Source: a virus. From it: a stretch of DNA of 14,092 nucleotides. Below are positions 117-14,092 of the stretch, in pieces. The notes beneath the pieces were generated by a model. It saw only the letters and a program-made list of their open reading frames with translations. It was not told the DNA's origin and searched no databases. Each line of letters starts with the position of its first letter. The stretch's first letter is position 1. The stretch lies in the UHGV virus genome UHGV-0124555; one strand, 5' to 3'. The translations under genes and the position numbers were made by a program.

Positions 117-1262
117 ATGGCACAGGGCTTGCCTGTATCAAACGTTGTTAATGTTGATGTGATCATGTCGCCGCGTGCAGCATCAGGGCGAAATTTTGGT
201 GCATTACTCATTCTCGGCCCGTCCACAATCATTCCGGTAAGTGAGCGCATTCGTCGTTATTCTGCCGCGGAAGATATTGGAAAAGATTTTGGCGTGGAAT
301 CACCAGAATATAAGGCTGCGCAGGTGTTTTTCTCTCAATCACCGAAACCTCAGGAGGTTTTTGTTGGTCGTTGGGTGAAAACGAAGGGAGACAGCGAACA
401 GGCCACGCCTGAGACGCTGGAGCAGGCTGTGAATGCCATGCTCGATTATACTTCATGGTATGGGCTGGGGATTGCAGACGATGCAGATATTCCGGATGCA
501 GACTGGCTGAAAGTGGCTGCGGCGATCGAATCCTCTTCTGTAAGCCGTATTCTGGCGATTACGACAAGCGATGAGAAATGCCTGCAGACTGCATCCAGCG
601 ATGATTTGGCATCAAAACTGAAAACCGCCGGATATTCACGCAGTTTTATTCAATATTCATCGGGTAATAAATACGCTGCGTTATCTGCATTTGGCCGGGC
701 ATTCACGGTTAATTTTAATGGCAGTAATACCGCGATTACGCTCAAGTTTAAGCAGGAGCCGGGCGTCGGGTATGAAACACTGACAGTCAGCCAGGCATCG
801 GCACTTGATGCAAAAAACTGCAATGTATTCGTGTACTACCAGAATGATACGGCTATCCTCCAGCAGGGAGTGATGGCTAACGGCGATTTCTTTGATGAAC
901 GCCACGGCCTGGACTGGTTACAGAATTATGTGCAGACCAACCTCTATAACCTGCTTTATACCAGCACCACGAAAGTTCCCCAGACTGAAGCCGGTATTAC
1001 CCGACTGTTATCAAGTGTTGAAAAATCACTGGATCAGGCCGTTCAGAATGGACTGATTGCTCCGGGCGTATGGAACGGGGGCAACCTTGGTCAGTTGTCA
1101 TCGGGTGACACGCTGCCCAAAGGTTATTACGTATACGCCCAGCCGCTGGATGAACAGGCACAATCAGAACGTGAAGCCCGTAAGGCTCCGGTGATTCAGG
1201 CTGCAATAAAACTTGCAGGCGCGGTTCATTACGCTGACGTACAGATTAACGTTGTTCGCTAA
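117..1262 (+). CDS. Putative contractile tail sheath protein (DUF3383-like)
   Basis: 381-aa ORF with GGAG RBS 8 nt upstream of ATG. It is the first gene of a sheath-tube-chaperone-tape measure series. Size and position fit the short DUF3383-type sheath proteins recalled from memory; no similarity search was run. Confidence 0.6.
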
Positions 1263-2357: not shown

Positions 2358-4299
2358 AACTATTAAAGATTTCCTCGTCTCGCTTGGCTTCAGTGTGGAT
2401 GATGCAGGAGCGAAAAAGTTCGGTTCTGTCCTCGCCGGTACAACTGCAAATGTCATCAAAATGGGGCTGGCTGTTGAAGGAGCTGCGCTGTCCGTGGTGG
2501 CCTTCACGGCTAAGATCGCCTCCGGCCTGGATAATCTTTACTGGGCGTCACAGCGCACCGGCGCGACAGTCCAGGGAATTCAGTCTATTGGCTATGCGGT
2601 TTCGCAGGTTGGCGGCAGCGTGGACGCTGCGCGATCTTCTCTGGAAAGCCTCTCCCGGTTTATTCGTAACAATCCCGGTGCAGAAGGCTTTCTGAATCGC
2701 CTGGGCGTACAGACCCGTGATGCCAGCGGTAACATGCGTGACATGGCCGCTATTTTTACAGGTGTAGGCCAGAAGCTCAGCGGCATGCCGTATTACCGGG
2801 CTAACCAGTATGCGCAGATGCTGGGCATTGACGAAAATACCCTTATGGCGATGCGCCGGGGTGTGGGTGATTTCTCCGGGCAGTACAGCGCAATGGCGAA
2901 AGCTATCGGCTTCAATGCTGACGAGGCTGCCTTATCGTCAAACCGGTTTATGACCTCGCTGAAATCGCTCGGTGAAATGGCCGGGATGGCGCGGGACAAA
3001 ATCGGATCGAATCTTGCGGACGGACTGGCGGGGCAGATTGATAACCTGCGCAAAAAGATAATTGAAAATTTTCCCAAAATTGAAGTCACCATCACAAAGG
3101 TCATAAAGGGGATCCTCTGGCTGGGTGAGATAGTCGGGCGGGTAGCATTTCGGATAGTCGATGGTGTCGGAGATATCATCGAGTGGTGGGGGAAACTGGA
3201 TGCCGAAACGAAAACCCTGATAGAGGTTATCGGCGGTCTGGTTGTCGCCATGCGGATACTTAACTCTACTTTCTGGATGTCACCTATAGGGCTGATTACC
3301 GGTCTGATCGTTGCTCTCGGTCTCTTGTGGGAAGACTACAAAACATGGAAAGAAGGCGGTAACAGTCTTATCGACTGGGAAAAATGGCAACCGGCAATAG
3401 ATAAAGCGAAGGATGCGATCACCTGGCTTCGTGATCACCTTCTGGAACTAAAAGATGGTGTTGGCGGCTGGCAAAATGCACTGGAGTTGCTGGCGACTTT
3501 TATCGCCGGAGTATGGATTAGCAAGGTCACAGGAGCATTTTCACGACTTGCAGGGATACCGGTCCCGCCGTGGTTAAAAGGCTGGATGGCTTATGCTGCG
3601 TATTTGTACTCCGATCGCGAAAATATTGGTGCCAGTGCGAAGTCATCCTGGGATTACACGAAACAAAATATTGGAGATTCATTGCGCTGGCTTGGCATTG
3701 ATACCGATTTTGGTCGTAATCCTCATATCGTAAAAGGCGCAAATATTCAGTCAGATATTCCAGGTGCTGAGCCGGAACAACATGCACAGGCTACGAAGCG
3801 TACTTTAGCCGATCGGAATAACAATCCAGGGAATATTCGCCCGGTGAGCGGCAAAGGGTTCCGGTTTTTCGAATCAGCTCTTGAGGGCTGGGAGGCGATG
3901 AAAAAACAGCTCATGCGTTACTTTACCGGGAAAACAACCGGACGGGCATTACAGACTATTCAGGATATTGTCAGTACCTGGGCCCCGGCAGGTGATAACA
4001 ACGATCCGAAAAAGTATGCACAGGATGTTGCGAAATGGATGGGAGTATCACCGAATGCAATATTGAATCTTACAGATCCCCAGACTATGGGTGCATTGAT
4101 GCAGTCGATGGCGCGAAAAGAAGGTTATTCAAACTGGAACAGCCCGCTGGCGTATCAGGCCGCCGCTGGCAGCCTTAACCAGCAGACTGTTATAAATGTT
4201 CATGGAGTTAACAACCCTCAGGAGGCGGCTAATCTGATCGCTGACAAGCAGGGGGCTGTAAATGCCAGGGCGGTACAGCAATTGAAAGGACCTGCGTAA
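2347..4299 (+). CDS. Tail tape measure protein
   Basis: Longest ORF in the module (650 aa from ATG 2347), directly after the chaperone pair. GGAGAGAGG RBS sits 5-6 nt upstream of ATG 2347; the ORF-track TTG at 2326 lacks an RBS. Long hydrophobic segments in the middle (for example LIEVIGGLVVAMRILNSTFWMSPIGLITGLIVALGLLW) are typical of tape measures. Confidence 0.8.
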   Translation: MNAETIKDFLVSLGFSVDDAGAKKFGSVLAGTTANVIKMGLAVEGAALSVVAFTAKIASGLDNLYWASQRTGATVQGIQSIGYAVSQVGGSVDAARSSLESLSRFIRNNPGAEGFLNRLGVQTRDASGNMRDMAAIFTGVGQKLSGMPYYRANQYAQMLGIDENTLMAMRRGVGDFSGQYSAMAKAIGFNADEAALSSNRFMTSLKSLGEMAGMARDKIGSNLADGLAGQIDNLRKKIIENFPKIEVTITKVIKGILWLGEIVGRVAFRIVDGVGDIIEWWGKLDAETKTLIEVIGGLVVAMRILNSTFWMSPIGLITGLIVALGLLWEDYKTWKEGGNSLIDWEKWQPAIDKAKDAITWLRDHLLELKDGVGGWQNALELLATFIAGVWISKVTGAFSRLAGIPVPPWLKGWMAYAAYLYSDRENIGASAKSSWDYTKQNIGDSLRWLGIDTDFGRNPHIVKGANIQSDIPGAEPEQHAQATKRTLADRNNNPGNIRPVSGKGFRFFESALEGWEAMKKQLMRYFTGKTTGRALQTIQDIVSTWAPAGDNNDPKKYAQDVAKWMGVSPNAILNLTDPQTMGALMQSMARKEGYSNWNSPLAYQAAAGSLNQQTVINVHGVNNPQEAANLIADKQGAVNARAVQQLKGPA

Positions 4300-5257: not shown

Positions 5258-6292
5258 ATGTCGAAAAACTGGATGCGTCACTTTGAATTATTGCTTGTTG
5301 ATGATAAGGGCGACGGGATAAAAATTTCTGAGCTTAAAGTCACTTTCAATATTCAGAAAATGCCTGCGAGCATATTTAATGGATTCGTTGGAAATTTTAA
5401 GGTTTATAACCTGTCCCCTACCACTCAGAACCGGATTATGCAAAAGGAGTTTTCGCGTATACAGGTTATTGCCGGATACAAGGGGCAACCGGATGCAGCA
5501 GGTAATTATCCTGATGAAAACGTTGGTATGATATTCAATGGAGATATCCGTTTTACTGTCACTGGTAAAGATAATGCCACAGACAGTTGGATCATGTTGC
5601 AGTGTATTGACAGCTGGGAAGGTCACCTGAACGCAAGTGTGAAAACCACAGTGGCAGCTGGCTGGAAGTACAGCGATCTTTTCAGTCTGGGTATGAAATC
5701 ATTCGAACCATATGGCATCGAATCCGGTGCAGTTCCTGACATGCCGGAAACGGTATTTCCCAGAGGTCGCGTTGTTTATCAAAACACATCAAGGTTGATG
5801 AATCATATCGCAGGGCAGTGTAAAGCTAACTGGTGGTATGAAAATAATCTGGTAAATATTGTTCCTGAAGATAAATATATTGGTGTTGCTACGGTGTTGA
5901 ATGCTAACACCGGGCTTATCGGTATGCCACAGCAGACGATGGGAGCTGGCGTAAATGTCAGATGTCTGATTAATCCAAATATTAAGCTCGGTGGGCTTAT
6001 TCGTCTGGATCAGGCATCTGTATACCGTGCCTCTTTGAGTAATGACCAGGTAGCGAAATCGCCAGCACGACTGGATGAGTCTGAAAGCGACGGTAATCTC
6101 TACGTTAACGGTCTGCCAGGCATGTCACAGCCTGCCAGCATTAATACTGACGGTGATTACATTGTGGGCAGCATTGATTATACTGGCGACACCCGAGGGC
6201 AGGCGTGGTATATGGACCTGCTTTGCCTGGCTAAAGGTGGCAAAGAACTATTGGCAAAAGGCACTTTGGACAAAGTCGGAGATGTAGAGTGA
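5258..6292 (+). CDS. Putative baseplate hub protein (Mu gp44/P2 gpD-like) by synteny
   Basis: 344-aa ORF starting 3 nt after the previous stop. Size and position match the hub gene that precedes the spike in Mu-type tails. The 5' portion looks AT-rich relative to flanking tail genes, so a mosaic origin is possible. Confidence 0.45.
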   Translation: MSKNWMRHFELLLVDDKGDGIKISELKVTFNIQKMPASIFNGFVGNFKVYNLSPTTQNRIMQKEFSRIQVIAGYKGQPDAAGNYPDENVGMIFNGDIRFTVTGKDNATDSWIMLQCIDSWEGHLNASVKTTVAAGWKYSDLFSLGMKSFEPYGIESGAVPDMPETVFPRGRVVYQNTSRLMNHIAGQCKANWWYENNLVNIVPEDKYIGVATVLNANTGLIGMPQQTMGAGVNVRCLINPNIKLGGLIRLDQASVYRASLSNDQVAKSPARLDESESDGNLYVNGLPGMSQPASINTDGDYIVGSIDYTGDTRGQAWYMDLLCLAKGGKELLAKGTLDKVGDVE

Positions 6293-6624
6293 AAAAAGTA
6301 TTTTTTTGTTTATTCTTGGCCCTGCCGTTAACAGTTTCGGCGGCAACGCAGTGCGGACCATTCCGCTTTGATGCTGGTAATGATGGCCTCATGCACATCA
6401 ATGGTCAAAAGCCAGAAACACAAAAAATGACCTTTTTGAAACAAAAAGACGATTTCGATAATGTCATGATGCAATGGATGTTACCTGATCCTAATACTGG
6501 ACGTTGGTTAGGTATGGACTACATCAAACGAAACAAAAAAGCGATCCTCAACGTTGAAGTTATCCGCAAAAATATGGACGAGCCTCGGGAGTTCTGGACG
6601 TATGATTGCCGGAAGGTTAAATGA
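6289..6624 (+). CDS. Secreted/periplasmic protein of unknown function (accessory 'moron'); signal peptide MKKVFFCLFLALPLTVSA|ATQ
   Basis: 111-aa ORF with a GTG start overlapping the hub stop (GTGA). The N-terminus has a basic n-region, hydrophobic core and VSA cleavage motif, with no lipobox. The mature part has Cys near each end. The gene is visibly AT-rich and has its own terminator. Confidence 0.55.
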   Translation: MKKVFFCLFLALPLTVSAATQCGPFRFDAGNDGLMHINGQKPETQKMTFLKQKDDFDNVMMQWMLPDPNTGRWLGMDYIKRNKKAILNVEVIRKNMDEPREFWTYDCRKVK

Positions 6625-6639
6625 TCTTGCCCTCTCCGT

Positions 6640-6667
6640 AACCCACCGTCAGGTGGGTTTTTTGTTT
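6640..6667 (+). terminator. Rho-independent terminator after the signal-peptide gene
   Basis: Perfect 8-bp stem AACCCACC/GGTGGGTT with loop GTCA, followed by TTTTTTGTTT. The stop codon and last four codons (KKPT) of the convergent Mnt-like gene are encoded inside the hairpin and T-tract. Confidence 0.6.
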
Positions 6668-6969
6668 AGCAGTTCTCTCAACTTTTCGTTCTGCTCTCTG
6701 AACTTTTCCTGTATTTCTTTTTGCATGGCGATAACCTGGGCTTGAAGTTGAACTAGCGCATCAACATTTAGCGGAACCGAGACGCTGTTGATTTTGTCTG
6801 CTATTTCCCCAAGAGTATTTTCTGCATTCAAGGCATCTTCCAGTATCTGCACAATCTCTGAGTTCATTGATCTGCCGTTACGTTTAGCTCGTTCAGCTAT
6901 AGCATCTCGCATTCCGTCAGGAAAACGGAGGTTGAACTTGTCGTAGTCTTTTACTTGTTTTTCGGCCAT
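6649..6969 (-). CDS. mnt: Mnt-like ribbon-helix-helix (Arc/MetJ family) repressor with a C-terminal coiled-coil-like extension
   Basis: FNLRFPDGMRDAIAERAKRNGRSMNSEIVQILEDAL closely matches the P22 Mnt/Arc beta-strand and helix motif (FNxRxP ... NGRSxNSE), recalled from memory. The start is placed at ATG 6969 (MAEKQVKDYDKFNLRFP) rather than the ORF-track 6993. The C-terminal 60 aa are rich in Q/E/K/L. The gene is divergent from the arc-like gene, as in P22 immI. Confidence 0.7.
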   Translation of the reverse strand: MAEKQVKDYDKFNLRFPDGMRDAIAERAKRNGRSMNSEIVQILEDALNAENTLGEIADKINSVSVPLNVDALVQLQAQVIAMQKEIQEKFREQNEKLRELLNKKPT

Positions 6970-7076
6970 TGCAAATCTCTCAAAAAAAATCATGGTGCCA
7001 TATTGCCATATGATTTCAATGGTGGCATTATGGCCTTCATGGTGTCACTTTGGCACCAAATAAAGGAGATTAGATA
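6970..7076. promoter_or_regulatory. Divergent promoter/operator region between the mnt-like and arc-like genes (candidate Pant and Pmnt)
   Basis: Rightward candidate promoter: -35 TTGCCA (7003-7008), 17-bp spacer, -10 CATTAT (7026-7031). Leftward candidate -10 CATAAT sits on the - strand at 7027-7032. Repeats present: tandem TGCCATAT x2 (6996-7011), ATGGTG x3 (6992, 7019, 7039), and inverted pair GGTGCCA (6994-7000) / TGGCACC (7051-7057). AAGGAG RBS at 7063-7068. Confidence 0.4.
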
Positions 7077-7250
7077 ATGCAAGATACACTTTTCACTGAG
7101 CGCAAAAATATCAAACTCAACCTTCGCCTTCCATCACGGCTGAATGAAGACCTTCGCCGCCTGGCGGAAATGGACTGTATATCTCTGAACTCTGCAATTG
7201 TTCGTTTGCTGGCAAAAGGTGTTAGGGAAGAGGTGGCGAATGGTCGCTAA
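7077..7250 (+). CDS. arc: Arc-like ribbon-helix-helix repressor (57 aa; absent from the ORF track)
   Basis: Hand translation gives MQDTLFTERKNIKLNLRLPSRLNEDLRRLAEMDCISLNSAIVRLLAKGVREEVANGR*. AAGGAG RBS lies 8 nt upstream. The NLRLP beta-strand and SLNSAI helix follow the Arc pattern, and the gene sits directly upstream of the antirepressor-like gene as in P22 arc-ant. Confidence 0.7.
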   Translation: MQDTLFTERKNIKLNLRLPSRLNEDLRRLAEMDCISLNSAIVRLLAKGVREEVANGR

Positions 7251-7321
7251 AAACAGCGAAGCCCCGACAGCGGGAACTGGCGAGGCTTCTACATCAACAA
7301 ATCTGATCGGGAAATATTGAC
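7251..7321 (-). ncRNA. Candidate sar-like cis-antisense small RNA covering the antirepressor RBS and start codon
   Basis: Minus-strand candidate promoter inside the 5' end of the antirepressor gene: -10 TATACT (complement of 7328-7333), 17-bp spacer, -35 GTGAAA (complement of 7351-7356). Minus-strand terminator: stem GAAGCC (7258-7263) / GGCTTC (7284-7289) followed on the - strand by GCTGTTTTT. Predicted transcript is about 70 nt, analogous to P22 sar. Confidence 0.3.
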
Positions 7322-8200
7322 ATGAAAAGTATAGCAAAGACACAAAACGATTTCACCATCTTCAAATTCGGCGACAGTGAAATCCGCGTCATCAACAAGT
7401 GCGGTGAGCCGTGGTTTGTAGCTAAAGATGTTTGTGATGCTTTAGCTTTGACTAACTCACGCAAGGCGCTTACTGCACTTGATGACGATGAAAAGGGAGT
7501 AACTTTAAGTTACACCCTTGGTGGTGAGCAGAATTTAAGCATTGTGAGCGAATCAGGTATGTATACATTGGTTTTGCGCTGCCGCGATGCCGTCAATAAA
7601 GGTTCAGTCCCGCACAAATTCCGCAAGTGGGTAACAGCAGAAGTTCTGCCTTCAATTCGCAAATATGGCGAGTATGTGAAAGGCAAGAAAACCACAGTTG
7701 AAGAAAGAACACCGCTACGCGATGCAGTAAACATGCTGGTAGGAAAGAAAGGACTTCGCTATGACGATGCATACAATATGGTTCATCAGCGTTTTGGTAT
7801 TGACAGCATTGATGAACTTTCAATTGAACAAATCCCGCTGGCCGTAGAGTACATCCACAGGGTGGTGCTTGAAGGTGAGTTCATTGGCAAGCAAGAGAAG
7901 AAAGCAAACGAGCTTTCTGCAAAAGAAGCAAACAGTCTTGTATGGTTATGGGATTATGCCAACCGCTCACAGGCATTATTCCGCGAACTGTATCCGGCAT
8001 TAAAACAAATTCAATCGAACTATTCCGGAAGATGCTACGACTACGGTCATGAGTTTTCGTATGTTATCGGAATGGCGAGAGACGTTTTAATCAACCACAC
8101 ACGAGATGTTGATATCAATGAGCCAGGCGGACCAACGAATCTTTCCGCATGGGTAAGGCTTAAGAACAAAGAGTTGCCGCCTTCACTGCATCGCTACTGA
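7322..8200 (+). CDS. ant: Bro-N domain protein, putative antirepressor (P22 Ant-like); a KilA-N-type abortive-infection protein (BstA-like) is an alternative
   Basis: 292-aa ORF. The N-terminal about 110 aa carry the Bro-N signature ([32 protein letters not shown] ... LDDDEK). The C-terminal about 180 aa have no motif I recognise. The gene lies directly downstream of the arc-like gene and is visibly AT-rich. Confidence 0.6.
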
Positions 8201-8216
8201 CAATTGACAACTTAAC

Positions 8217-8242
8217 AAACCCAGCTTCTGCTGGGTTTTTTA
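8217..8242 (+). terminator. Rho-independent terminator after the antirepressor-like gene
   Basis: Perfect 8-bp stem AACCCAGC/GCTGGGTT with loop TTCT, followed by a T-run. The stem is nearly identical to the terminator at 6640-6667. Confidence 0.6.
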
Positions 8243-8260
8243 CTTTCTGGAGACATATGA

Positions 8261-9016
8261 ATGCCCGTTTCTTTAATCGCTCAACTTGGTAGCAAAGAAC
8301 AGGCCGATGTAAGACTTGCTGGCTCTGTCATGTCGGCGCTGCGTGTTTCTATGCCCGGCATCGTCCAGTCATTTGATCCGGACACGGTAACAGTGGTTGT
8401 TCAACCTGCGATTAAAGGCTATGAGCCGGACTCAAATGGAATCAACCAGTCGACGACATTACCCCTGCTGGTGGATGTACCAGTGGTATTCCCGCGCGGC
8501 GGAGGCTGTACGTTGACTTTTCCGGTTAAAGCCGGGGATGAATGCCTGGTGATTTTCGCCGACCGCTGCATCGATTTCTGGTGGCAGAACGGCGGGGTGC
8601 AGGAGCCTGTCGACGACCGGGTGCATGATTTATCGGATGCTTTCTGTATCGTCGGGCCGCAGTCTCAGGCGCAGAAAATAAGCGGAATAAGCACCAGTGG
8701 CGCGCAGCTGCGTACTGATGATGGCGCTGCGTTTGTGGAAGTGGCCGCAGGCCATAACATCACGGTTAAAACTCCCGGCGCGTTGACGGCGACAGCAGAA
8801 GGAGGAACCACGATCACATCACCCACCATCACGCTAAACGGCAACGTGACAATAAACGGGAATCTCTCTCAGGGGATGGGCGAAAGCGGCGGCACCGCGA
8901 CGATGCTTGGCCCTGTCACGGTGACTAACGATGTAAAAGCTGGTGGTAAGAGCCTGATGACGCACACGCACGGCGGAGTACAGACCGGCGGCGGTAACAC
9001 AGGAGCGCCTAACTGA
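8261..9016 (+). CDS. Baseplate central spike / assembly protein V (Mu gp45 / P2 gpV-like)
   Basis: 251-aa ORF with GGAGA RBS 7 nt upstream. The C-terminal half is Gly/Thr-rich and repetitive (TVKTPGALTATAEGGTTITSPTITLNGNVTINGN), like a beta-helical spike. It ends with an H-x-H motif (MTHTHGG), matching the metal-binding apex of gpV-type spikes. Confidence 0.7.
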   Translation: MPVSLIAQLGSKEQADVRLAGSVMSALRVSMPGIVQSFDPDTVTVVVQPAIKGYEPDSNGINQSTTLPLLVDVPVVFPRGGGCTLTFPVKAGDECLVIFADRCIDFWWQNGGVQEPVDDRVHDLSDAFCIVGPQSQAQKISGISTSGAQLRTDDGAAFVEVAAGHNITVKTPGALTATAEGGTTITSPTITLNGNVTINGNLSQGMGESGGTATMLGPVTVTNDVKAGGKSLMTHTHGGVQTGGGNTGAPN

Positions 9017-12661: not shown

Positions 12662-12695
12662 CACAAAGCTTTGCACTTGATTGCAAGGCTTTGTG
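12662..12695. repeat. Imperfect 14-bp inverted repeat with 6-bp spacer (CACAAAGCTTTGCA cttgat TGCAAGGCTTTGTG)
   Basis: Arms match at 13 of 14 positions. It lies in the 96-bp gap between the convergent tfa and int genes. No strong T-run follows on either strand, so it may be a protein-binding site or a weak bidirectional terminator. Confidence 0.4.
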
Positions 12696-12719: not shown

Positions 12720-13877
12720 TCACTCCACCTTTTCATCAATCCAATCCGCCCACCATTGCATCATTTCTCTGCGTTTATCGAGATACTGCGCATGGTTGTA
12801 AATCCCGCGCACAGAACCGCCGTTGGCATGTGCCAGTTGCACTTCAATAGCGTCAGCAGGCCATTCGTGCTCGTTCATAATCGTGCTGAATTCATGCCTG
12901 AATCCGTGACCGCTTTCCAGACCTTCATAGCCGATTTGTTTGATCACAAGCAATACCGCGTTCTCGCAGATTGGCTTCTTCTTATCGTTGCGCCCGGCAA
13001 AAACAAACTCTGAGACTGGTTTGGTGATTGAGCTTAGCGTAGTGAGAAGTTCAACCACCTGGTCTGACATCGGGACCACATGAATTTTGCGTCCCTTCAT
13101 CACACTGGCGTCGATGGTGATAATCCTGTTTTCAAAATCGACGTTCTTCCATAGCATGGAACGAAGCTCTTTCGTTCTTAGGGCTGTATAACGTAAAACT
13201 TTTGTCGCAATGAGCGATACGATACTTCCTGAAAATGTTGCCAGTGCTTTGTTGAATGCAGGCACCTGGTCTGCTGGAAGGAACGGGAAGTTCTTCTTGC
13301 GGTATCCTTTCATGGCGTCTGCAAGGTCAGGTGCCGGGTTATATTTAGCCCTTCCGGTGACAATAGCGTAACGAAAAACCTCGCCGCATCTTCTGCGGGC
13401 TTTGTTGGCTCGCTCCATTGCACCGCGATCTTCAAATCTGCGGATTACTTCCAGCAGTTGCATCGGCTCAATATCCTGAATCTCAAGACCGCCGATGATG
13501 GGTAAAATGTCGTCATCAAACATTTTGGCAAGTTCAGTTGCATAGCCTACTGACCAGACTTGCTTCTTGTGCTCGTACCATTCCTTGTAAATCGCACTAA
13601 ATGAATTGTTGTTAGACGAAGCCTTTTTCGCCTTTACCGGATCGATGCCAACCGAGATGTCTTTCCTCGCAGTCCATGCCTTATCCCTTGCTTCCTGCAA
13701 AGTCATAAGCGGATATTTTCCGACGGTCAGGATTTTCTCCTTACCGTCAATCTTGTAGCGAAGCTGCCATACCTTTTTCCCGGATACAGGAACATAAAGG
13801 TACAGGCCATTACCATCGAGAAGGCGGTATGGTTTTTCTTTCGGCTTTGCTGCTTCAATCTGCTTAACGGTGAGCAT
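12720..13877 (-). CDS. int: Tyrosine recombinase / phage integrase (P4-type)
   Basis: The N-terminus MLTVKQIEAAKPKEKPYRLLDGNGLYLYV matches the P4-type integrase arm-binding signature. The C-terminus has HGFRHEF ... LAHANGGSVRGIYNHAQY, consistent with the catalytic H-x-x-R and Tyr. It lies next to a tRNA gene. Start is placed at ATG 13877; the ORF-track GTG at 13913 is an alternative. Confidence 0.9.
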   Translation of the reverse strand: MLTVKQIEAAKPKEKPYRLLDGNGLYLYVPVSGKKVWQLRYKIDGKEKILTVGKYPLMTLQEARDKAWTARKDISVGIDPVKAKKASSNNNSFSAIYKEWYEHKKQVWSVGYATELAKMFDDDILPIIGGLEIQDIEPMQLLEVIRRFEDRGAMERANKARRRCGEVFRYAIVTGRAKYNPAPDLADAMKGYRKKNFPFLPADQVPAFNKALATFSGSIVSLIATKVLRYTALRTKELRSMLWKNVDFENRIITIDASVMKGRKIHVVPMSDQVVELLTTLSSITKPVSEFVFAGRNDKKKPICENAVLLVIKQIGYEGLESGHGFRHEFSTIMNEHEWPADAIEVQLAHANGGSVRGIYNHAQYLDKRREMMQWWADWIDEKVE

Positions 13878-13913
13878 GGGTAAAAATCCGGTGGGTAAAA
13901 TTATTTTATCCAC

Positions 13914-14038: not shown

Positions 14039-14092
14039 TGGTGTCCCCTGCAGGAATCGAACCTGCAATTAGCCCTTAGGAGGGGCTCGTTA
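14039..14092 (-). tRNA. argW: tRNA-Arg (anticodon CCU), 3' 54 nt; the 5' part lies beyond the window edge
   Basis: The reverse complement reads TAACGAGCCCCTCCTAAGGGCTAATTGCAGGTTCGATTCCTGCAGGGGACACCA. It shows an anticodon stem AGCCC/GGGCT with loop CUCCUAA (anticodon CCU), a T-arm GCAGG-TTCGATT-CCTGC, and acceptor 3' strand plus CCA. This matches enterobacterial argW from memory. Confidence 0.85.

Follow-up and report, generated by a model that had tools for sequence, protein, structure and literature searches.

A probable P22 Ant-family antirepressor with a Bro-N domain in an immI-type module of a lambdoid prophage, and a palindrome inside its gene

UHGV virus genome UHGV-0124555 contains, at positions 7322–8200 of the 14,092-nucleotide stretch that was analyzed (the window), an intact plus-strand open reading frame of 292 codons, here called ant. 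Its ATG is the first start codon after an in-frame TGA at 7304. The gene belongs to a small group of regulatory features (Table 1) located between baseplate-hub genes and a gpV-type spike gene of a contractile-tail cluster. An earlier note on this DNA proposed that the protein could be an antirepressor or a BstA-like abortive-infection protein, and held that the sequence alone does not separate these roles. Homology, the match to PHROG 245 and the genomic context do separate them. Based on the homology of its C-terminal part to P22 Ant, a full-length match to PHROG 245 and a complete mnt/arc/sar/ant context, the gene is very probably a P22 Ant-family antirepressor, the effector of an immI-type moron that a lambdoid prophage integrated at argW carries among its late genes.

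The N-terminal domain matches Pfam Bro-N (PF02498) at E = 7.5e-20, with 71.8 bits against a cut-off of 25.6. This confirms the Bro-N fold that had been recognized earlier from a peptide corresponding to residues 21–57. The statement that the C-terminal 180 or so residues match nothing recognizable has to be corrected. Pfam identifies P22_AR_C (PF10548, 'P22AR C-terminal domain') in this region at 3.6e-29 (101 bits, cut-off 22.4), and BLASTP aligns residues 122–292 without gaps to residues 130–300 of P22 Ant with 85% identity (145/171, E = 8e-113). The match to PHROG 245, 'anti-repressor Ant', extends over residues 1–276 (1e-110). The window protein shares 97.6% identity with the anti-repressor annotated in phage Kapi1 and 95% with a protein cluster named 'phage repressor protein/antirepressor Ant' (1319 members, 740 contigs). 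For E. coli, RefSeq lists this gene as 'P22AR C-terminal domain-containing protein'. No KilAC/ANT C-terminal domain (Pfam ANT, PF03374) was found in the Pfam scan of the protein at E ≤ 0.1, and NCBIfam gave no match. A sequence search of the PDB returned no relative, and there is no solved structure of the C-terminal domain. An AlphaFold2 model based on an 18-sequence alignment has a mean pLDDT of 62 and a pTM of 0.32, with the N-domain below 50 and the middle and C-terminal helices at about 75–85; Foldseek comparison of the model with the PDB gave nothing better than E = 0.6.

Alignment and Pfam scans of relatives resolve Ant proteins into three exchangeable modules. The N-terminal module of about 118 residues is Bro-N in the window protein, P22_AR_N in P22 and in Stx phage 2851, and KilA-N in two other relatives (P0117 and P0118). 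The middle helical module occurs as two alleles among the relatives, and the C-terminal module, which is P22_AR_C in the window protein, starts at about residue 190. The joints fall at about residue 120 and at a conserved 10-residue motif. From residue 1 to ~190, a common 292-residue variant (proteins P0084–P0102) shares 98% identity with the window protein, and its last third consists of unrelated C-termini that have no Pfam match. Thus, P22_AR_C is swapped as a cassette at the conserved 10-residue joint. Such exchange is an instance of the 'Bro network' of domain-swapping proteins (PMC10111431). On the evidence of these alignments, the combination of Bro-N with P22_AR_C is a domain-swapped relative of P22 Ant, and the architecture itself is common and annotated.

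Judged by sequence and gene order, ant is the last member of a compact module that matches P22 immI (mnt-arc-sar-ant) part by part. The divergent gene at the left encodes a Mnt-like protein that matches Pfam Arc at 1.8e-20, aligns to the DNA-binding N-terminal part of P22 Mnt with 49% identity (E = 1e-12) and matches PHROG 1287 (6e-51) in an alignment starting from residue 9. RefSeq annotates its 106-residue form as 'Arc family DNA-binding protein'. In the region between this gene and the arc-like gene, the promoter scan found a Pant-like promoter on the plus strand (7003–7031, TTGCCA-17-CATTAT with TG) face to face with a Pmnt-like promoter on the minus strand (7056–7027). The motif TGGTGNCA occurs here four times, at 6993, 7020, 7040 and, inverted, at 7051. 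Its copies build a 19-nt direct repeat and a 16-nt inverted repeat (6993–7008/7043–7058) that overlap both promoter-like sites (6993–7058). By analogy with Pant, Pmnt, Oarc and Omnt of P22, these repeats are candidate operators for the Mnt-like and Arc-like proteins; they are unlike the operators of P22.

The Arc-like protein scores 22.1 bits with Pfam Arc (E = 1.4e-4, cut-off 20.4) and is 30% identical to P22 Arc over 40 residues (E = 7e-6), and its gene has the position and orientation of P22 arc. It is on the same strand as ant, from which a 71-nt spacer separates it. The earlier note had placed ant just downstream of a small repressor, as for classical antirepressors and for defence proteins such as BstA. 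A ribbon-helix-helix gene (7077–7250) does lie 71 nt upstream, but it is of the Arc type and part of a late operon, not of the CI type that precedes bstA.

The arc-ant spacer aligns to the P22 sar region. A permissive Rfam search of 501 nt matched the full sar model (RF00262, 1–68) to the minus strand at 7255–7320 with 30.2 bits (E = 4e-4); at the gathering threshold Rfam returned only a tRNA fragment over the window, and sar was seen solely in the permissive search. The sar terminator stem, GAAGCC...GGCTTC, is kept in P22, in 2851 and in the window, and its inner part changes on both sides in a compensatory way. On the minus strand the window stem has better pairing, two odd pairs turning into G.U or a single mismatch, and the terminator scan placed a minus-strand terminator-like site at 7278–7260, followed by TCGCTGTTTT. 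The position of the Psar-like site within ant is that of the annotated P22 sar promoter (15097–15125) relative to the P22 ant start at 15091. The P22 annotation also has a terminator at the place equivalent to the window terminator after ant.

Table 1 Features of the ant module in the window, in order of position
Feature	Position	Strand	Basis
Terminator-like hairpin, AACCCACCGTCAGGTGGGTT then TTTTGTTT; left moron boundary, overlapping the mnt-like 3′ end	6640–6659	+	Terminator scan
Mnt-like ribbon-helix-helix repressor, 106 aa from the second ATG (mechanical ORF to 6993)	6649–6969	−	Pfam, BLASTP, PHROG, RefSeq
Divergent promoter/operator region (candidate), 84 bp	6993–7076	.	Promoter scan, repeat search
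Arc-like ribbon-helix-helix repressor, 57 aa; first gene of the ant operon	7077–7250	+	Pfam, BLASTP, position
sar-like antisense RNA (putative) across the arc-ant junction and the ant ribosome-binding site	7255–7320	−	Rfam, alignment to P22 sar
ant, probable antirepressor	7322–8200	+	Pfam, PHROG, BLASTP, alignment of relatives
Psar-like promoter, GTGAAA-17-TATACT with extended −10 TG, within the first 35 nt of ant	7328–7356	−	Promoter scan
Bro-N domain	residues 20–110 (nt 7379–7651)	+	Pfam
27-bp palindrome AAGGGAGTAACTT-T-AAGTTACACCCTT, codons K58–L66, in a variable Bro-N loop	7493–7519	.	Repeat search, codon shuffles, covariation
Middle helical module	residues ~122–186	+	Alignment of relatives
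P22_AR_C domain	residues 192–264 (nt 7895–8113)	+	Pfam
Intrinsic terminator, AAACCCAGCTTCTGCTGGGTTT then TTTACTTTCT, after ant; right moron boundary	8217–8238	+	Terminator scan

A metagenomic relative with an 82% identical Ant (locus L007, 1848–3879) has a different regulator at the mnt position. The place is held by a divergent 272-residue repressor with HTH_3 and Peptidase_S24 domains (CI/LexA-like), and no Arc-family protein is present there. This suggests that the ant module of the relative is switched on by RecA-dependent self-cleavage.

The host element can be identified from the end of the window, where an IntS-type integrase gene (12720–13913, minus strand) precedes a tRNA gene that is cut by the window end, leaving its 3′ 51 nt (14042–14092, minus strand). 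In a related E. coli prophage the corresponding tRNA is tRNA-Arg, next to yfdC. Based on the integrase and this tRNA, we conclude that the window represents a lambdoid prophage at argW, of which it is the right end. The genome of E. coli LWY24 aligns with 87% of the window (97.6% identity) and has a complete lambdoid prophage at tRNA-Arg with the ant moron in the same place. The prophage carries cIII, kil, a gene for a 242-residue repressor with HTH_3 and Peptidase_S24 domains, a cro-like gene, cII and Q, and its cI-like gene is ~27 kb from ant. Thus, the class of repressor that P22 Ant targets is available in this prophage family.

If the gene acts as P22 ant does, the divergent Mnt-like repressor would hold the ant promoter shut in the lysogen. 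Ant would bind, non-covalently, the CI/C2-type repressor of its own or of a co-resident lambdoid prophage, and early promoters would be freed. After infection or induction the Arc-like repressor, co-transcribed with ant, would shut the promoter again, and the sar-like antisense RNA, made from the promoter inside the start of ant, would block ant translation on read-through transcripts. We infer repressor binding, the target repressor and the roles of the three regulators from work on P22 and Phi24B. According to work cited in PMC3121763, P22 Ant binds and inactivates P22 C2 and the repressors of L, lambda and 21. When ant was deleted from Phi24B, late-promoter activity after induction was about 30% of wild type and a plasmid copy restored most of it; the last 104 residues of Phi24B Ant show 82% identity to P22 Ant (PMC3064807). 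We also infer that antirepressor activity resides in the C-terminal ~170 residues (122–292), the part common to Ants with three different N-terminal domains, and that Bro-N is an exchangeable DNA-interaction module.

Several points weigh against the assignment as an antirepressor. The N-terminal domain is Bro-N and not the P22_AR_N of P22 Ant, and the literature searched contains no experiment on any protein that joins Bro-N to P22_AR_C, nor did we find a source that assigns the part of P22 Ant contacting the repressor. The sar match is below the Rfam gathering score of 43. The window is without the immunity region of its prophage, and the target repressor is taken from a relative. In addition, P22 does not need Ant for its induction, and the natural role of the protein is a matter of debate (PMC3121763). 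In an alternative reading, the window protein has the architecture of an Ant and a main job other than inactivating the repressor of its own prophage. It could induce other prophages or satellites in trans, or Bro-N could regulate by DNA binding with P22_AR_C as an oligomerization or partner module. P22 Ant does act on heterologous repressors, and a role in cross-talk has been proposed (PMC3121763). Bro-network proteins are also common in satellites of the PICI type (PMC10111431), the N-domain is freely exchanged among Bro-N, P22_AR_N and KilA-N, and the C-terminal third is exchanged as well. Nevertheless, tight control in three layers (Mnt-like, Arc-like and sar-like) is expected for a protein that is dangerous to its own lysogen, and deletion of ant in Phi24B affects the induction of that same prophage. 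We therefore consider this alternative unlikely.

The probability that the protein is a BstA-like defence protein, in which a DNA element inside the gene would give the prophage self-immunity, is very small. What recalls BstA is a 'network' N-domain of the Bro-N/KilA-N kind, a length of ~300 residues and, superficially, the conserved palindrome inside ant, which could be likened to aba inside bstA. However, the PADLOC BstA model gave no match to the window protein at E ≤ 1 (the control, BTP1 BstA, scored 1.9e-124), and BLASTP between the window protein and BstA gave E = 0.47. The C-terminal two thirds are those of P22 Ant; that is, at the level of sequence they are a known antirepressor domain, one of the two outcomes that the earlier note had named as speaking against BstA. 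The loci also differ. BstA has a KilA-N-like domain and is encoded downstream of cI, with aba as a 63-bp element at the 5′ end of the gene bounded by terminal CCCGCC direct repeats (Owen et al., PMC8585504), and the BTP1 record annotates bstA immediately downstream of a CI-like repressor in the immunity region. The window gene follows an arc-like gene in a late-operon moron, with no adjacent cI. Its palindrome starts at codon 58, a place where bstA has none. The repeat search of the window ant found no terminal direct repeats of the CCCGCC type, and its 5′ end holds the Psar-like promoter. Given no PADLOC match, no BLASTP similarity, a different C-terminus and a different locus, we rejected the identification as BstA. 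Of the two roles proposed earlier, the antirepressor therefore stands, on the basis of P22 Ant homology, PHROG 245 and the immI context. It is even less probable that the module is a decaying, non-functional remnant, as suggested for the degraded ant genes of HK620 and Scho1. Ant morons turn over fast and some are degraded (PMC2629481), but the open reading frame here is full length, with 97.6% identity to its counterpart in Kapi1, a viable temperate phage, the regulatory parts are all present and the flanking tail genes are intact.

The palindrome itself came from a search for an internal self-immunity element, a check that the earlier note had suggested. Aba-like direct repeats were not found, but a 27-bp palindrome was (7493–7519), and it is the only strong repeat in ant. 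Synonymous-codon shuffles of ant reached an arm of at least 13 in 5 of 2000 cases. Close relatives are uninformative in this respect (the 27-mer is identical in 79 of 80 viral contigs), and first scans with the window Bro-N returned mostly near-identical loci. Diversity was obtained from a genome-collection scan, distant queries and individual phage records, which together gave 121 distinct coding sequences for Bro-N. Their sources are enterobacteria, phages of several other groups of bacteria, a group of Pseudomonas phages and a group of actinophages. Diverged homologues keep the palindrome with other sequence, GTA..TAC being replaced by GTC..GAC or ACG..CGT. Over the 121 sequences, the best-hairpin score of the segment homologous to residues 53–72 has a mean of 8.28, with 79 distinct hairpins. 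The background mean is 4.61 (maximum 10), based on 2850 same-length windows elsewhere in the same Bro-N domains. Codon resampling of the first 23 sequences with the peptide fixed gave a combined p of ~1e-15, a value that is indicative only, since the sequences are not all independent.

For 42 sequences that are in register, 84.8% of cells are Watson–Crick or G.U paired, compared with 67% in shuffles and 28–45% with slid partners. The covariation score is 0.452 against 0.12 (0 of 500 shuffles reach it), and four inner pairs of the palindrome each occur as three or four pair types. The register is codon-wise, with codon i the reverse complement of codon 10−i, and the residues therefore co-vary by a reverse-complement rule (V/Y, V/D, T/R, T/S, R/P, L/Q). 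No other loop of the Bro-N domain is as variable as this segment. The phages of Firmicutes hosts in the sample show a weak signal or none.

Palindromes are also found in ant genes with other N-terminal domains. P22 ant has one with the halves CAACTATGTCGAT and ATCGACATGGTTG at nt 180–205 (P22 15270–15295), and that of phage 2851 is at 3349–3375 of its locus (L005). In 52 distinct P22_AR_N relatives the hairpin score is 7.06 against a background of 4.12, with co-varying centres GATATC or CATATG, and two ant genes of the KilA-N type have different hairpins at nt 191–214. At the corresponding place neither bstA nor P22 rha has a palindrome. What the Bro-N, P22_AR_N and KilA-N ant genes have in common is a palindrome ~170–215 nt after the start codon, with stems that are wholly different between lineages. 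Comparison of the N-domain profiles of Bro-N and P22_AR_N by hhalign gave a probability of homology of 6%; for this reason we claim only the same distance from the start codon and not homologous loops.

Several simple explanations of the palindrome were rejected. As a terminator it has no T-run after it on the plus strand and only four T on the minus strand, and there is none in high-GC relatives. As a repeated operator its half-site has 4 matches in the window where 4.85 are expected, and the half-site of the P22 palindrome occurs 22 times in the whole P22 genome compared with 19 expected. As a sense-strand RNA hairpin it shows no excess of G.U over A.C mismatches (14 versus 38). RNA folding z-scores are modest (−1.6 and −2.4), and many of the palindromes are perfect through the centre. 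The lack of a G.U excess and the perfect centres favour a symmetry at the level of DNA over an mRNA hairpin.

We tentatively suggest, as a possibility that is open to considerable doubt, that the palindrome is a selected cis element ~170–215 nt after the ant start whatever the N-domain. It would be the cognate site of the gene's own N-terminal DNA-binding domain, kept within the coding sequence of that domain so that recombination in mosaic genes cannot part protein and site. Lambda O, with ori inside its gene, is a precedent for a site within the gene of its own binding protein. BstA with aba is another (PMC8585504). The main alternative without a function is that template-switch mutation keeps regenerating a quasi-palindrome in a protein loop that tolerates change. 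We found no report of the ant palindrome in the literature searched, which did not extend to the older P22 papers. Covariation keeps the palindrome across antirepressor genes from phages of Proteobacteria and Actinobacteria. If it has a function, a cis element has been overlooked in a very common family of phage genes, and it would be a direct handle on the role of the Bro-N, P22_AR_N and KilA-N domains in antirepressors. If the cognate-site proposal is true, the 'Bro network' antirepressors would bind DNA site-specifically and have a self-marking or autoregulatory site of their own.

The boundaries of the moron can be compared with those of related phages. Two hairpins flank it, AACCCACCGTCAGGTGGGTTTTTT (6640–6663) and AACCCAGCTTCTGCTGGGTTTTTT (8218–8241), which are direct repeats of each other with 83% identity. 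Near-identity to phage 2851 starts at ~6643 and breaks inside the sar stem, and the likeness to the modules of Kapi1, Stx-phage and epsilon34 stops at ~8242. Similarity to the modules of other phages starts and stops there, and the two terminator hairpins may be recombination joints that move the moron between late operons. The lambda-like Stx phage 2851 has, between its tail genes L and K, near-identical counterparts of the mnt-like gene, the control region and the arc-like gene of the window (93% mean column identity over the whole aligned stretch). The segment 7258–8241 is matched best by the P22-like Kapi1, where the module precedes the tailspike gene. An 'ant moron' has been described for P22-like phages (PMC2629481), and the window adds a third kind of tail operon. 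Based on these alignments, the same 1.6-kb immI moron occurs in late operons of the contractile-tail, lambda-like and P22-like kinds, with 93–97% DNA identity in 2851 and Kapi1. Of 5426 complete E. coli genomes, 1283 (about a quarter) have part of the region 5900–8600, and only 4 have at least 80% of it; the best, 5CRE51, covers 100% at 98.6% identity.

Two observations concern the surroundings of the moron. Just before it, and overlapping the end of the baseplate-hub gene by 4 nt, a plus-strand gene (6289–6624) encodes a 111-residue protein with an N-terminal signal peptide, MKKVFFCLFLALPLTVSAATQC. PHROG 3443, a family of unknown function, matches the protein at 7e-48, and Pfam, NCBIfam and PADLOC gave no match; the protein could be a lysogenic-conversion or exclusion protein. 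Further right, the tail-fibre assembly gene and the integrase gene have between them an inverted repeat with a 14-bp stem (CACAAAGCTTTGCA..TGCAAGGCTTTGTG, 12662–12695), probably a terminator that acts in both directions.

The gene is thus of an already known kind and sits in a textbook control module, and its assignment as an antirepressor removes a speculative lead to a defence gene. What the locus shows is an immI moron moving between three types of late operon, with an ant built from three exchangeable modules. The palindrome is an unexplained observation that may deserve a study of its own.

Among named systems, P22 immI has the same gene order and orientation (mnt, arc, antisense RNA, ant), and the window also shares with P22 the sar promoter in the first ant codons, the terminator after ant and the location as a moron in the late operon. 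The C-terminal 171 residues of P22 Ant (NP_059643), P22_AR_C included, are those that are 85% identical to the window protein. The two systems differ in the N-terminal domain of Ant (P22_AR_N in P22, Bro-N in the window), in the Mnt-like protein, which has 106 residues and a different C-terminal half, in the only 30% identical Arc-like protein and in the operators. They also differ in the virion, a contractile-tail baseplate cluster in the window phage and a podovirus tail in P22. The closest protein is that of Kapi1 (vB_EcoP_Kapi1, QOC59581.1), identical at 97.6% over all 292 residues, with the same Bro-N and P22_AR_C domains and a sar region of 94% DNA identity. However, Kapi1 is a P22-like podovirus with other Arc-family regulators upstream, and the annotation gives its gene 22 additional codons at the 5′ end. 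Phage 2851 has mnt-like and arc-like genes and a promoter region like those of the window (~97% DNA identity) and an Ant whose C-terminal 107 residues are near-identical, and the Ant of Phi24B brings experimental support for helping prophage induction; the Ants of Phi24B and 2851 differ from the window protein in having a P22_AR_N N-domain and the other allele of the middle module. BstA (BTP1 STMMW_03531) is likewise prophage-encoded, with ~300 residues, an N-domain of the KilA-N/Bro kind and a DNA element inside its gene, but it has no sequence similarity to the window protein, another C-terminus, a locus after cI and, in aba, direct repeats at the 5′ end.

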